From the IMG/VR virus record IMGVR_UViG_2671180294_000017: a stretch of 7,389 bases of DNA; one strand, written 5' to 3'. The notes under the pieces are model-generated. The model did no database searches. It was not told the DNA's origin and saw nothing but the letters and a program-made list of their open reading frames with translations. Positions within the stretch are counted from its first letter, which is position 1. Every line of letters begins with the position of its first letter. The position numbers and the translations under genes are program-made. Origin of the DNA: a virus (lineage: Duplodnaviria > Heunggongvirae > Uroviricota > Caudoviricetes). Below, in pieces: positions 1 to 7,389 of the stretch.

Positions 1-651
1 TTATGATTCGCACCACCAAACACCNNNNNNNNNNNNNNNNNNNNNNNNNNNNNNNNNNNNNNNNNNNNNNGGCAAATGTCCAGATATGATAAAATCAATA
101 TTTTTATACGAATCAATAAAACTTTGGAAATGACCGTGGAGTAATTTATCATTTAAAGGATAGCTCGCTGGAAAATCCCTTAAAATACTATCAAACTGAT
201 CTCCAAAAATAAGAAGATTGATGTGAAAAGAATTAGGTAAAGTTTCAACTAATGAACGTACCCTCGCAAACGGTGTAAAGTGGAAGTAAGCGTTTAAAAA
301 GTCCACATCTGACTGTCTTTTTTTATCTGAAAATAATGTATTATCGGTTGCACCCTGTATATAAGCCTCATGTTCACTTTTGATTTGATGCAATTTTTCT
401 ACTGTATAAGTGAATGGATCTCTATCAACAAGAATATGATCATTTGCACAAAGCAGGATAAGATTTTCATAAGAATTGTCATTTGCTAACAGGTCATCGC
501 CCCTTGGTCCTTTTGGGCTTTTGGCTATTACATGAGCCATTTGTCCGATGTGAACCTGCTCTTTAAAAAGAGAAGTTCGGCAAATATTACATTGCCCAGC
601 GGATAGTCCATACAATTTTTTTATTGCTGCTGTAGTAATTGCATCACTCAT
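1..651 (-). CDS. HNH (His-Me finger) nuclease-domain protein, 216 aa; N-terminal HNH motif with an unrecognised C-terminal domain of roughly 130 aa
   Basis: ORF track. Translation carries the HNH arrangement near the N-terminus: CNIC, then HIGQMAHVIAKSPKGPRGDD, then NLILLCANDHILVD (Cys pair, catalytic His, Asn, second Cys/His pair). ATG at 649-651 is preceded on the minus strand by AAGGA 8 nt upstream. TAA stop at 1-3. About 15 codons near the C-terminus lie in the masked run 25-70. Confidence 0.8.
   Translation of the reverse strand: MSDAITTAAIKKLYGLSAGQCNICRTSLFKEQVHIGQMAHVIAKSPKGPRGDDLLANDNSYENLILLCANDHILVDRDPFTYTVEKLHQIKSEHEAYIQGATDNTLFSDKKRQSDVDFLNAYFHFTPFARVRSLVETLPNSFHINLLIFGDQFDSILRDFPASYPLNDKLLHGHFQSFIDSYKNIDFIISGHLXXXXXXXXXXXXXXXXGVWWCES
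25..70. other. Masked/undetermined bases (46 N) inside the 3' part of the HNH gene
   Basis: Run of n in the sequence. Confidence 1.
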
Positions 652-790
652 AAATCAAATCCTTAGATTGCTATTTTATTAACTCAAAACACATATTAAA
701 GGAAAAATCTTTCAGCTTCCACCAACCATAATCAATAGCACTTGCAAAAGTTGTCCTAATGGAACTTGGATCACAATAATTCCAAAAGCA

Positions 791-970
791 TCAAGTACTG
801 GTACTATGANNNNNNNNNNNNNNNNNNNNNNNTACTATGATCCAGTTATAGAGAATGATAAGGGTTAGTACAAAACCGAGGGCATTACGCCAGTGGAATG
901 TTACCTTTTCAATCTCTTCTTTATTCGTTTCAATCTGCCCTTCTACATTCGTTTTCTTTACTTCCTGTTC
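791..970 (-). CDS. Possible 3' end of a gene that starts inside the masked block; visible tail is EQEVKKTNVEGQIETNKEEIEKVTFHWRNALGFVLTLIILYNWIIV, acidic then a hydrophobic helix-like segment
   Basis: Hand translation of the minus-strand frame whose codons include 968-970: 46 consecutive sense codons across 833-970 with no stop, long for AT-rich DNA. If the 23-nt mask length is exact, the frame ends at TGA 791-793. No start codon is visible, so the ORF track could not list it. Frame choice across the mask is unverifiable. Confidence 0.25.
   Translation of the reverse strand, partial: EQEVKKTNVEGQIETNKEEIEKVTFHWRNALGFVLTLIILYNWIIVXXXXXXXXHSTST
810..832. other. Masked/undetermined bases (23 N)
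   Basis: Run of n; flanked on both sides by the same octamer tactatga (802-809 and 833-840). Confidence 1.
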
Positions 971-1573: not shown

Positions 1574-2004
1574 TTCTTTGCGGTATCAATTAATCGTTCT
1601 TTACCATTCTTACCCTTCACTACCTTATATCGTTCACTTAAAAGATTCTTTTTCAGTCCTGAAATGTTGCCCTGCTTAGTTAATCTTGTAGATGAAGTAG
1701 GTATAAACTTATCAATTGCCTTTGGCTGTACCAGTACTTGATAAAGGTACTTAGCCTGAATATCTTTAACCATGATGGTCGATGTAACTGAATTTCTCCC
1801 AACCTTTCTATAGAAGAAAAGGATGGAACGTTGAGTAAAGCCCACTGCCCCACGGTCAACGCTATTATTCAAATCACCCTGCATTCTTTGGGATAGTAGC
1901 TTGGAACGTTTAATTATTTCATTCTGGAATTGATTATTTAATCTAACTCCCTGCGTTTGTATATAGTTCCTTATACTACCAATCCCATTTATTCCACTTG
2001 CCAT
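1574..2004 (-). CDS. Visible 5' part (143 codons) of a basic, Lys/Arg-rich hypothetical protein that continues into the masked block; possibly a nucleic-acid-binding protein or the DNA-binding half of a homing endonuclease
   Basis: ORF track entry 958..2004; only 1574..2004 is real sequence. ATG at 2002-2004 with GAGGT about 6 nt upstream. 143 stop-free codons. Translation MASGINGIGSIRNYIQTQGVRLNNQFQNEIIKRSKLLSQRMQ... is strongly basic. The true 3' end is hidden; the track's 958 end merely assumes the frame survives 603 N. Confidence 0.65.
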
Positions 2005-2013
2005 ATATTTACC

Positions 2014-2448
2014 TCAATTCAAGTACTCCAATAGTTCCTGTACTATTCCGAGTAGTCTTTTTTTATCCTTTGCATTTGGTGATCTAATCTTACTCATCAT
2101 TGCCAGATTCAAACATTCCGGTTTAAGCATCTGATGAAGGATCAGTATTGCCTCTACAATCATTACCTCTCGCATAGTTGCGAAGCACCATAGAATCGTT
2201 TTTGAGTACTGTTCACCATTTTCAATTTTGTTTTTAACGACATTGGAACTACTGAGGTACTCACGCCAGCCATTTTCCTTTGAAGTGGGCTTTAGCTTTC
2301 TCGCATCCTTAACCCGCTGATAGATTTGCTTAGCACCGACATAATTAGAACCATCCTCAAACTGAAAGATATAAACGAAACCAGCATATTCACCGGATAA
2401 CATTTCCTCCTCGCTCCAATCATCCGAGTATTTCCATTCACTCATCAT
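2014..2448 (-). CDS. GIY-YIG family nuclease-domain protein, 144 aa (catalytic domain only; homing-endonuclease-like)
   Basis: Translation contains GFVYIF, then after 9 residues YVGAKQIYQRVKDARK (the GIY...YIG pair plus the conserved downstream Arg), and later REVMIVEAILILHQMLKPECLN (the conserved Glu and Asn spacing seen in I-TevI and UvrC-type domains). AGGAA lies 6 nt upstream of the ATG at 2446-2448. TGA stop at 2014-2016. Confidence 0.8.
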   Translation of the reverse strand: MMSEWKYSDDWSEEEMLSGEYAGFVYIFQFEDGSNYVGAKQIYQRVKDARKLKPTSKENGWREYLSSSNVVKNKIENGEQYSKTILWCFATMREVMIVEAILILHQMLKPECLNLAMMSKIRSPNAKDKKRLLGIVQELLEYLN

Positions 2449-2484: not shown

Positions 2485-2934
2485 ATGAGCGATTTAAAAA
2501 CACGATTAAAAGAATATGAAGGTACTAAAGAGTATCAGGCAAATTTGAAGTACTTCAGAAATGGGAAATTCTATCCATATGCTGATAGTTTAGGATGTAG
2601 TACTATTGTATATGGTCACTTAATTCAGGCGGGAGAAGATTTTAGTACTGGCATTACTGAAAGCGAAGCAGACAAGTTACTATCTCGCGATTTAGCCAAA
2701 ACAATTATGCAGGTACAGACATTAGGGTTAAATCTTCCCGATGACTGGAATGATTTTATTATTATCATGACCTTCCAGTTAGGTATTGGCGGGGTGAAGA
2801 AATTCCGTAAGATGTTAGCAGCCCTGAAAGCACATGATTACCTTGAAGCAATTAAACAGGCTAAGTGTTCTCTATGGTACAGGCAGACACCAAACCGTGT
2901 GAATTCCATGATTGCAGTACTTAAAAACAAATAA
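2485..2934 (+). CDS. Phage lysozyme (T4 e-type, glycoside hydrolase family 24), 149 aa; probable endolysin
   Basis: Translation aligns by eye with T4 lysozyme landmarks: LKEYEG (catalytic Glu), ADSLGCSTIVYGHLI (Asp/Thr and the GH motif), ITESEADKLLSRDL, MTFQLGIGGV, and SLWYRQTPNRV (compare T4 SRWYNQTPNR). No signal peptide or N-terminal hydrophobic segment. AGGT about 9 nt upstream of the ATG; TAA stop at 2932-2934. Confidence 0.92.
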   Translation: MSDLKTRLKEYEGTKEYQANLKYFRNGKFYPYADSLGCSTIVYGHLIQAGEDFSTGITESEADKLLSRDLAKTIMQVQTLGLNLPDDWNDFIIIMTFQLGIGGVKKFRKMLAALKAHDYLEAIKQAKCSLWYRQTPNRVNSMIAVLKNK

Positions 2935-2940
2935 AGAAAA

Positions 2941-2974
2941 GGCATAGTACGAATGACATACTATGCCTTTTTTT
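2941..2974. terminator. Bidirectional rho-independent terminator between the convergent lysozyme gene and the small membrane protein gene
   Basis: Perfect 9-bp stem ggcatagta (2941-2949) / tactatgcc (2959-2967) with a 9-nt loop, followed by TTTTTTT (2968-2974) on the plus strand. The A-rich stretch aaacaaataaagaaaa (2925-2940) gives a U-tract for the minus-strand transcript. Confidence 0.75.
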
Positions 2975-3245
2975 ATGGTCGTTGTTTCTGCTGAAGAATT
3001 GCAATAATCCTTTCAATCTTAACATCAAGTTCATGGATTTGTGTTTCCAGTTTACTTAGTGTATCTCTCATCTTATCCTGATCATCCTCAATACGGGAAA
3101 TACTACTTTCCAGTACAGCAATGGTAGTTTCAAGAGTAGCAACGCGAGTTAATAGATCATTCGTATCCTTTGTATTATCTCTAAAGATAGTATAAAGGAA
3201 TACGCATCCAGAAATAACAAGAGCTAAAATAGCACCGATATCCAT
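2973..3245 (-). CDS. Small single-pass membrane protein with a C-terminal coiled-coil, 90 aa; function unknown (candidate lysis-associated or superinfection-exclusion protein)
   Basis: ORF track. Residues 3-21 IGAILALVISGCVFLYTIF form one hydrophobic helix-length segment. The remainder, LLTRVATLETTIAVLESSISRIEDDQDKMRDTLSKLETQIHELDVKIERIIAILQ, is charged with heptad-like hydrophobic spacing. AAGGGA lies 7 nt upstream of the ATG at 3243-3245; TAA stop overlaps the terminator T-tract. Confidence 0.7.
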   Translation of the reverse strand: MDIGAILALVISGCVFLYTIFRDNTKDTNDLLTRVATLETTIAVLESSISRIEDDQDKMRDTLSKLETQIHELDVKIERIIAILQQKQRP

Positions 3246-3256
3246 ACTGAAATCCC

Positions 3257-3304
3257 TTTGTTGTTATTGTTATTGTTATTGTTATTGTTATTGTTATTGT
3301 TTTT
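3257..3304. repeat. Hexanucleotide microsatellite: six perfect tandem GTTATT units (3263-3298) with degenerate flanking units; AATAAC on the minus strand
   Basis: Read directly: ttg ttattg x6 tttttg. It fills the gap between the TAA stop of the 218-aa gene (3308-3310) and the ribosome-binding site and ATG of the 90-aa membrane protein gene. Confidence 0.9.
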
Positions 3305-3307
3305 GTA

Positions 3308-3964
3308 TTAATACCCTGTAAATGTCGCCAATGCTATCTGGATACCATTATTCCCCATTGCCTGGCGGTAGGTTTTCTGGTTCTTTGAAACGTACTGTAG
3401 ACTGAATGAAGTACTGGAATTACGCCTGATAACCAGACCAGAGTACCCAATTACTGTACCATCATCTGATATGTTCCCCGGACATTGTGACCAGCAGAAC
3501 CAGGGATCAGCTACTGGAGACGTTACCGTAATGGCAGTACTGAGATCGGTAGCCGCAGGTGCTGTCAAAAATCCCCTGATACGTGGCATTGTTGCCGCTG
3601 ATGCAGCAGACCAGATTAAAGTACCTTCTTCACTGAACACATCAAGAAAACCAGATGTGGGGGTAGCCGTGTGACTACTTGTCATGAACCTGCCCATGCC
3701 AGGCTGGAACATATAGGCACCAGGGAAACACCATGCCCCGTCTTTCTGTATCTGGAACCAGTACTGTGTTGTGTTCCTGTTAGCTACTACTGATGGCATA
3801 ACGAAACCGAGCGATCCACCATTACCGAAGGCACAGGTAAAGCCTGTGTAGTATCCCGTATCAGTTAGATTTCCCATGGCCTTTACTGCACCCGTCATTA
3901 TCGACTTGTTAGTACTATCTATAGTCAGTGCACCCGCTGAATTATATACCTCGAAACCTGCCAT
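3308..3964 (-). CDS. Hypothetical protein, 218 aa, Gly/Thr/Ser/aromatic-rich, no signal peptide; paralogous at its N-terminus to the upstream 98-aa protein; candidate tail-tip accessory or receptor-binding protein
   Basis: ORF track. Start ATG 3962-3964 lies 1 nt after the stop of the upstream gene. N-terminus MAGFEVYNSAGALTIDSTNKSIMTG matches the 98-aa protein's N-terminus, and a similar motif recurs at residues 105-120 (GFLDVFSEEGTLIWSA). TAA stop at 3308-3310. Confidence 0.75.
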   Translation of the reverse strand: MAGFEVYNSAGALTIDSTNKSIMTGAVKAMGNLTDTGYYTGFTCAFGNGGSLGFVMPSVVANRNTTQYWFQIQKDGAWCFPGAYMFQPGMGRFMTSSHTATPTSGFLDVFSEEGTLIWSAASAATMPRIRGFLTAPAATDLSTAITVTSPVADPWFCWSQCPGNISDDGTVIGYSGLVIRRNSSTSFSLQYVSKNQKTYRQAMGNNGIQIALATFTGY

Positions 3965-3965
3965 C

Positions 3966-4262
3966 TTACGCCGTCCACTTATATACGTTAAAAGTGTAGT
4001 TACCAGCTAACGGTGCATATGTTGGCAAATAAACCGCAGTAAATGACCCATTATTACAAAAGGCTGACCACTCATTAAAGGTATCACTGGCGGGGGCATA
4101 GTGTACAAACCAGCCTGTAGTTTTCATATTTGGTACTGATACAGTATAGGTCTGTGCAGAAGTAGCCTTGACAGTATAAGTACCCATAAAACGTATGTTA
4201 TAATCAGTCAGATCTACTACTAATACACCCGCTGCATTCCAACATTGTAATCCCTGTGCCAT
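3966..4262 (-). CDS. Hypothetical protein, 98 aa, no signal peptide; N-terminal domain paralogous to the 218-aa protein
   Basis: ORF track. AGGAG lies 8 nt upstream of the ATG at 4260-4262 (minus strand reads acaggagtaagagctATG). N-terminus MAQGLQCWNAAGVLVVDLTDYNIRFMG. TAA stop at 3966-3968. Confidence 0.7.
   Translation of the reverse strand: MAQGLQCWNAAGVLVVDLTDYNIRFMGTYTVKATSAQTYTVSVPNMKTTGWFVHYAPASDTFNEWSAFCNNGSFTAVYLPTYAPLAGNYTFNVYKWTA

Positions 4263-4419: not shown

Positions 4420-7389
<2,970 letters not shown>

Follow-up and report, generated by a model that had tools for sequence, protein, structure and literature searches.

A membrane-tethered coiled-coil protein between the tail and lysis genes of a Shigella sonnei prophage: a candidate accessory lysis protein

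The window analysed here, a stretch of 7,389 nucleotides from a caudoviral genome (IMG/VR record IMGVR_UViG_2671180294_000017), forms the right-hand end of a prophage of the siphovirus type. The gene under study lies at positions 2973..3245 on the minus strand and encodes a protein of 90 residues with a membrane helix followed by a coiled coil, as read from the list of open reading frames (ORFs), from its homologues and from an AlphaFold2 model. The reading frame starts with ATG, its stop codon occupies 2973-2975, and a Shine-Dalgarno sequence, AAAGGGA (3253..3259, minus strand, read from the sequence), is found 7 nt 5' of the start codon. On its upstream side are genes of the tail: a J-like central tail fibre or host-specificity protein (4420..7236, minus strand; PF09327 at 72 bits, phrog_31 at 2.8e-61), a 98-residue ORF (3966-4262, minus strand), and a 218-residue DUF8377/phrog_4524 protein that accompanies the tail tip (3308..3964, minus strand) and directly precedes the gene under study. 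The J-like gene and the gene under study belong to one, presumably late, transcription unit. On the downstream side, a T4-type lysozyme of 149 residues with neither a signal sequence nor a signal-arrest-release (SAR) sequence (2485..2934, plus strand; PF00959 at 40.6 bits) converges on our gene. We presume that this lysozyme is the endolysin of the prophage. The two genes share a bidirectional intrinsic terminator (2937..2971), a hairpin with flanking A and T runs that has a free energy of -23.7 kcal/mol (z = -7.1) and was matched in stability by none of 200 shuffled sequences. These values bear out the convergent arrangement with a signal-less lysozyme across a common terminator that was described in an earlier reading of this DNA by a model (hereafter the original prediction). 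We tentatively propose that the 90-residue protein is an accessory lysis protein, a holin-endolysin factor resembling releasin and XhlA, encoded by a temperate siphovirus that resides as a prophage in Enterobacteriaceae, in this case in Shigella sonnei.

Could so short a reading frame have arisen by chance? The protein has 113 close homologues. Among 1.84 billion representatives of clusters at 50% identity, about 55 match it at E <= 0.001, and these are proteins of Enterobacteriaceae prophages. Nearly all of the ~40 family sequences that were retrieved are 79-103 residues long and share the same layout, and two motifs are conserved: F/Y-R-D immediately following the membrane helix, and ERILTILE at the C-terminus. 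Taken together, the number of homologues and clusters, the common layout and the conserved motifs indicate a genuine gene under selection and no chance ORF. The exact 90-residue protein occurs in 589 blocks of the assembly collection; among the places that were read is the S. sonnei chromosome HE616528.1, where the element adjoins mipA-gapA. Megablast of the whole window against phage genomes gave no match, nor did megablast against complete E. coli genomes; a more distant search mode did find relatives in the latter, including an annotated prophage. The context of one distant match, P0183 (locus L036), is unrelated, and that match is probably a false positive.

Members of the family carry public names such as 'PspA/IM30 family protein', 'phage shock protein A', 'septal ring factor EnvC' and 'CwlO-like'. 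These names rest on coiled-coil similarity below threshold; the PspA model, for example, scores 21.2 bits against a cut-off of 33.9. The annotations PspA/IM30, phage shock protein A and EnvC are coiled-coil noise, and they should be corrected and not spread further.

The protein is built from two parts. Residues 3-21 (IGAILALVISGCVFLYTIF; 3183..3239, minus strand), with only M-D before them, form a strongly hydrophobic N-terminal transmembrane helix, with a Kyte-Doolittle mean of 2.46 over 17 residues. Residues 22-90 (2976..3182, minus strand) make up a charged soluble domain, delimited by the alignment and the AlphaFold2 model, which contains 11 K/R and 14 D/E (net charge ~ -3) and ends in the motif KIERIIAILQ. 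Its heptads have L, I, V or M at the a and d positions in an unbroken 3-4 spacing from L31 to L84, a pattern that is kept in a diverse family alignment of 35 homologues, 22-82% identical to the window protein. The R22-D23 junction is conserved, as is a polar residue, Q56, within the core of the coiled coil. With the diverse alignment as input, AlphaFold2 returned a single continuous helix from residue 3 to 88 at a mean pLDDT (predicted local distance difference test) of 91. The original prediction of one N-terminal membrane helix followed by a charged, heptad-like domain therefore stands. We also considered whether the sequence LVISGC might mark a lipoprotein; Cys14 is not conserved, being replaced by L, S or A in relatives, and ISGC is consequently no lipobox.

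On which side of the membrane does the coiled coil reside? Summed over the 35 family members, the segment before the membrane helix contains no K/R at all and 24 D/E, while the 15 residues after the helix contain 119 K/R; the window protein itself has three K/R in that stretch. By the positive-inside rule, this absence of basic residues before the helix together with a basic flank after it predicts an N-out/C-in topology, with the coiled coil in the cytoplasm. Topology prediction had been suggested as a check in the original prediction, and this is its outcome.

Beyond the lysozyme lies a block of genes on the minus strand that starts with a SegE-like GIY-YIG domain protein of 144 residues (2014..2448; PF19835 at 60.7 bits) and ends with a holin candidate. 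The position of the SegE-like gene is kept in all lineages that have the lysozyme. The protein has no DNA-binding domain and its gene is always found between the lysozyme gene and that of a 192-residue protein; it is a conserved backbone gene and no sporadic homing endonuclease. The conserved 192-residue protein is visible in its N-terminal part (1574..2004, minus strand), the remainder being masked with N, and its homologue in locus L037 matches at E = 3e-13. Masked runs at 25-70, 810-832 and 971-1573 cover most of the genes for the 192-, 103- and 97-residue proteins of the window. Comparison with unmasked sister loci identified the last of these, the fourth gene beyond the lysozyme, as a 3TM-type (three transmembrane segments) holin candidate, of which two fragments are legible: one spanning about residues 23-68 (833..970, minus strand) and one comprising the last 31 residues and the stop codon (712..807, minus strand). 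The full 97-residue candidate (L005:12125-12418) matches PF11351, GTA_holin_3TM, at 25.0 bits against a cut-off of 24.8; it also matches phrog_3427 'holin', and many of its NCBI and UniRef members are named '3TM-type holin'. Its first 50 residues read as a charged, helical segment that is probably cytoplasmic. The original prediction had seen no holin-like gene next to the lysozyme, because the masks split the 97-residue gene; that statement no longer holds. The lengths of the masks disagree with the sister loci (603 N against 518 nt, and 23 N at a point where 6 nt are common to both flanks), so that the holin gene of the window genome may or may not be intact. The 90-residue protein itself makes a poor holin: it has one membrane helix and not the usual two or three, and the lone holin match in the family, to Phage_holin_6_1, was obtained with one relative at 15.8 bits against 24.9. 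In the 36-nt spacer between the divergent starts of the lysozyme and GIY-YIG genes (2449-2484) we observed an imperfect palindrome (CCTATAAAT / ATTATAGG), which could be a common regulatory site for the two lysis transcription units.

We surveyed the gene context of homologues whose identity to the window protein ranges from 100% to ~23%. Shigella, E. coli, Enterobacter and metagenomic contigs share the order tail tip, coiled-coil protein, lysozyme, GIY-YIG protein, ~192-residue protein, ~103-residue protein and ~97-residue holin candidate, beyond which lies variable cargo or the attachment site. In most lineages, as in the window (2485-2934), the lysozyme gene is inverted; in three it is collinear and immediately downstream of the coiled-coil gene (L023:7259-7711, L039:8341-8784, L040:365-808). 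An invertible switch for the lysozyme gene was considered and dismissed: the window has no flanking inverted repeats, and the difference looks like an evolutionary rearrangement. The DUF8377 gene is missing in L017, where the gene pair is absent, and in L037, and in both the coiled-coil gene directly follows J; in L017 it still abuts the lysozyme. L037 and L038 have neither the lysozyme nor the GIY-YIG gene. There, a gene for a 55-residue protein (L037:8283-8450), which has two hydrophobic segments, begins 3 nt past the stop codon of the coiled-coil homologue and is followed by the 192-residue homologue, with no lysozyme within 8 kb. In every lineage examined, then, the coiled-coil gene adjoins either the lysozyme or a small multi-TM protein, and it consistently marks the point where the tail operon meets the lysis genes. 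A complete E. coli relative (NZ_CM151386.1, here L016) is ~33 kb long, is inserted in yegD and encodes a serine recombinase; no other lysozyme, holin or spanin is annotated in it, which leaves the T4-type lysozyme as its sole annotated muralytic enzyme. A hairpin functionally equivalent to the window terminator follows the coiled-coil homologue in L020 and L023, and the corresponding gap in L039 contains an inverted repeat followed by a T-run, as read by eye.

The spacer upstream of the gene is occupied by a microsatellite. A variable-number tandem repeat (VNTR) with the hexanucleotide unit CAATAA on the coding strand, in 6-7 copies, covers 3261..3306 (minus strand; Tandem Repeats Finder: period 6, 7.7 copies, score 85) and sits in the 62 nt between the stop codon of the 218-residue gene and the Shine-Dalgarno sequence. 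Its copy number varies among Shigella and E. coli loci that are nearly identical elsewhere: one in L006 and L007, five in L004, 6-7 in the window and L003, eight in L005 and ten in L008. The original prediction was right about the presence of this repeat directly upstream, and went on to call the gene the most likely phase-variable one in the window. As signs of phase variability we looked for a tract that lies within an ORF and has a unit length not divisible by 3, or for one between -35 and -10 hexamers. The tract has a 6-nt unit, lies between cistrons and is spanned by no promoter: the best promoter-like site in the spacer agrees at 8 of 12 positions, which 194 of 300 shuffled sequences equal. 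It can therefore neither shift a reading frame nor change promoter spacing, and the AAAGGGA Shine-Dalgarno sequence is unchanged across all S. sonnei alleles, whatever the repeat count. By these sequence features the tract is a true polymorphic VNTR, of interest for strain typing, and most likely not a phase switch. It may coincide with a published locus for multiple-locus VNTR analysis of S. sonnei; the one paper searched did not contain the repeat unit. Promoter-like sites that agree at 10 of 12 positions are present upstream in L020 and L026, and are equalled by 11 and 19 of 300 shuffles, respectively. In most lineages the best site is no better than in shuffled sequence, and the idea that the gene has its own promoter, in the manner of a moron, was set aside. 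The lack of a promoter-like site in the window and the close of the tail operon at a terminator that recurs in several lineages are both consistent with late expression.

How does this protein compare with known lysis helpers? Release of the SAR endolysin of phage Mu depends on gp25, the releasin, a cytoplasmic protein tethered to the membrane in type I orientation (N-out, C-in) (PMC9239132). DUF2730 proteins, to which gp25 belongs, have an N-out/C-in helix, a cytoplasmic helical domain of ~70 residues and a twin Arg or Arg-Lys junction, and their genes lie near endolysins, including those without secretion signals (Chamblee et al. 2022, PMC9239132). The same authors left open the role of DUF2730-like proteins that are paired with soluble endolysins (PMC9239132). 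Mu gp25 (PF10805/DUF2730, phrog_736) is 99 residues long. Like our 90-residue protein, it starts with MD, has no K/R before its single N-terminal helix, shows basic residues at the junction and a predicted N-out/C-in orientation, and continues into a helical, anionic domain in the cytoplasm; both have the motif hxxhL(L/E) near the C-terminus, at a similar distance from the membrane helix, and both genes are found beside an endolysin. The window protein matches phrog_736 with E = 3.1e-4 and is 24% identical to Mu gp25 in a pairwise BLASTP alignment. Hhalign of the family against a Mu gp25 alignment gave 73% probability and E = 3e-5, over only 47 columns, which take in the membrane helix and the beginning of the coiled coil. 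With the PF10805 model, whose gathering threshold is 24.9 bits and which gave 50.4 bits for Mu gp25 and 36.7 bits for JBD25 as controls, family members matched over nearly their full length at 23.8 (P0152, residues 3-81), 17.6 (P0157) and 15.9 bits (P0163). Conversely, a hidden Markov model (HMM) of the family scored 13-19 bits on Mu-type DUF2730 proteins, compared with 4-12 bits on decoys with a reversed soluble domain and ~1 bit on shuffled sequences. Precomputed DUF2730 matches were flagged only 'weak'. The protein is thus below the curated threshold for DUF2730 membership; architecture, predicted topology and neighbourhood match, and homology is possible.

There are also clear differences from the releasin. 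The twin-Arg junction is missing: the window protein reads R22-D23-N-T-K26 and the family consensus is R-D-x-x-x-D, although some members have RDRK or RDKK. Four DUF2730 types have a Pro break in the middle of the domain (IPGTED, LPTQQQ, APTHQD and LPDSQQ), a feature that is our own unpublished observation on these four types, whereas the window protein has no Pro between residues 22 and 89 and an unbroken helix. Mu is a transposable phage, while the gene under study resides in a ~33-kb siphovirus-type prophage with a serine recombinase and no annotated transposase, GemA or Mor. Finally, Mu gp25 serves a SAR endolysin; the partner lysozyme of our protein is soluble and is accompanied by a holin.

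A second point of reference is XhlA (PF10779) of the B. subtilis prophage PBSX, like our protein a membrane-anchored coiled coil of ~90 residues, whose gene likewise follows the tail genes and opens a cassette of holin and endolysin. The membrane anchor of XhlA is C-terminal and its host Gram-positive; that of the window protein is N-terminal. With the anchor at the opposite end, we regard the likeness as analogy and not as family membership. The XhlA model (cut-off 34.7 bits) gave 16.4 bits for the window protein and 29.2 for P0152, and 13 of 34 family members match it at E <= 1. XhlA, XhlB and XlyA are all required for the endolysin-dependent phenotype of PBSX, and XhlA is described as synergistic with the holin (PMC5589764). 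Lcc6 of the Shewanella phage LambdaSo, a single-pass protein of 65 residues, is required at the holin step (bioRxiv 10.1101/2024.01.23.576932). Compared by description, it shares with the role proposed here that a small membrane protein of the lysis region is needed besides holin, endolysin and spanin; it is shorter, works with a pinholin and a SAR endolysin, and was reported without DUF2730.

Several observations weigh against a releasin- or XhlA-like role in lysis. The best Pfam matches of the window protein are generic coiled-coil families, none of which reaches its curated threshold, and PF10805 is not among the 25 best. A PDB sequence search with the family profile returned generic coiled coils only, and unrelated trimeric coiled coils of the PDB (reovirus sigma-1 at 30 bits, P22 gp26 at 26.6 bits) score above DUF2730 proteins. 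With three DUF2730 types other than that of Mu, the reversed decoy scores as high as the real sequence. A tblastn search of 50,697 phage records with the protein yielded a chance match (E = 1), and no sequenced phage isolate among them has a homologue. The lysozyme lacks a SAR domain, which rules out, in its original form, the one mechanism demonstrated for a releasin, namely the freeing of a SAR endolysin. Even where the lysozyme is collinear, a terminator parts it from the coiled-coil gene, which is transcriptionally linked to the tail genes. All relatives reside in one prophage backbone, so that their conserved adjacency could be plain synteny and is by itself no proof of a functional link. 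The 55-residue neighbour in L037 shows no detectable homology to the 3TM holin (-0.1 bits with its HMM); by eye it had resembled the C-terminal half of such a holin, a likeness that neither BLASTP nor the HMM of 115 holin-family sequences supported.

Could the protein instead be an i-spanin, with an N-in anchor and a periplasmic coiled coil that pairs with an outer-membrane lipoprotein and fuses the membranes at the last step of lysis? This was one of the options of the original prediction. Two-component i-spanins (lambda Rz, T7 gp18.5, P2 LysB, Mu gp23) indeed share with our protein an N-terminal membrane helix, a helical coiled-coil domain and a gene beside the endolysin; the junction F-R-D-N resembles Y-R-D-N of lambda Rz, and phrog_739 'Rz-like spanin' is matched at E = 2.7e-5 (25.4 bits). 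Spanins are present in most phages of Gram-negative hosts, and annotation and a lipobox scan of a relative disclosed no other candidate in the prophage. The same four i-spanins all have K/R before the helix, however, as none of the 35 relatives does, and the predicted topology is the opposite. No o-spanin gene was found here: only the terminator lies downstream, none of the alternative-frame ORFs of at least 20 residues in the gene has a lipobox, and neither does any overlapping or adjacent ORF. The lipobox scan of the whole relative prophage found only a distant lipoprotein of 126 residues. The embedded or adjacent o-spanin that the original prediction had suggested looking for in other frames is accordingly missing. 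Moreover, the soluble part is one 69-residue helix (~10 nm) with no linker and no conserved Cys. Known periplasmic domains are about twice as long, and this helix could not span the periplasm even if a typical o-spanin were added to it. The family HMM scores a mere 2.7-5.7 bits on the four i-spanins. We consider an i-spanin distinctly unlikely.

The original prediction also wavered between a lysis component and an exclusion factor. A superinfection-exclusion or lysogenic-conversion protein would be made by the prophage and stop the DNA of the same phage or its relatives at the inner membrane. Exclusion genes, cor among them, are often located directly after those of the tail tip, as ours is, and a small membrane-anchored protein with a terminator after its gene is moron-like; the promoter-like sites in the upstream spacers of L020 and L026 would fit as well. 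Yet the window and most lineages have no site that surpasses shuffled sequence, and matches to exclusion and defence families in PADLOC, Pfam, NCBIfam and PHROG are only coiled-coil noise. Prediction puts the soluble domain in the cytoplasm, not on the side where a tail tip arrives, and the gene belongs to the conserved backbone, while variable, defence-like cargo sits beyond the holin. Exclusion thus appears rather unlikely, and of the two options the lysis-associated membrane protein is the better supported, by the adjacency to lysozyme or a multi-TM protein and by the holin block. Least probable of the readings weighed here is a virion-associated or ejection protein, a trimeric coiled coil at the tail tip whose hydrophobic N-terminus would enter the host membrane as the DNA is delivered. 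The gene does close the tail operon, after J and the accessory genes, and the best PDB matches are the trimeric fibre and needle coiled coils of reovirus sigma-1 and P22 gp26. These matches reflect generic heptad similarity, though; so hydrophobic a segment of 18-19 residues is typical of an integral membrane anchor, no PHROG tail annotation was obtained, and the gene stays with the lysozyme/holin block where tail accessory genes are lost. A last alternative shares the lysis function: the family might be a class of holin co-factors not homologous to DUF2730 or XhlA. Such a co-factor would bind the charged cytoplasmic loop of the 3TM holin, and without it the soluble endolysin of this Enterobacteriaceae prophage lineage, which has no recognisable spanin, could not bring about lysis. 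We rate this as improbable to a degree similar to exclusion, and leave the remainder for something not yet considered.

The far end of the window carries variable cargo. An HNH protein (1-651, minus strand; full 264-residue gene at L005:12479-13273) occupies the end of the prophage, and matches PADLOC PDC-M68A and endonuclease effectors of the SAVED-HNH/CBASS (cyclic oligonucleotide-based antiphage signalling system) type at E = 4e-23. Other strains have a KAP nucleoside triphosphatase, AbiGi or DUF2188 in this slot, which marks it as a variable site for defence cargo. In the E. coli relative L016 (24540-25876), just upstream of the small terminase gene, the 126-residue lipoprotein, the sole lipoprotein of that prophage, precedes a pair of secreted paralogues of 126 and 128 residues; it is too long for an o-spanin and could be an exclusion or conversion factor.

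Returning to the accessory lysis protein that we tentatively favour, its action may be pictured as follows. The protein would be made late, from the last gene of the tail operon. Its N-terminal helix would insert in the inner membrane with the two-residue acidic N-terminus in the periplasm (N-out/C-in), and an acidic, parallel coiled coil of ~8-10 nm would be displayed on the cytoplasmic face. There it might act with the 3TM-type holin, and indirectly with the soluble lysozyme, and so determine when, or how efficiently, holes form and the endolysin escapes. By analogy, we propose a role operationally like that of the membrane-tethered cytoplasmic helpers Mu gp25 and PBSX XhlA. Conservation, architecture and gene neighbourhood are observed here; the topology, the late expression, the partner and the part played in lysis are inferred.

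Small single-pass accessory lysis proteins have recently been recognised beyond the scheme of holin, endolysin and spanin, in the form of Mu releasin, PBSX XhlA and LambdaSo Lcc6. The present family is uncharacterised; it resembles known lysis helpers in design and position, falls below their thresholds, and resides in a non-Mu prophage. Combining a single soluble lysozyme with a single 3TM-type holin and a single membrane-tethered coiled coil, but lacking a recognisable spanin, it constitutes a compact and genetically tractable test case in prophages of E. coli, Shigella and Enterobacter. As such, it bears on what DUF2730-like proteins do beside soluble endolysins.

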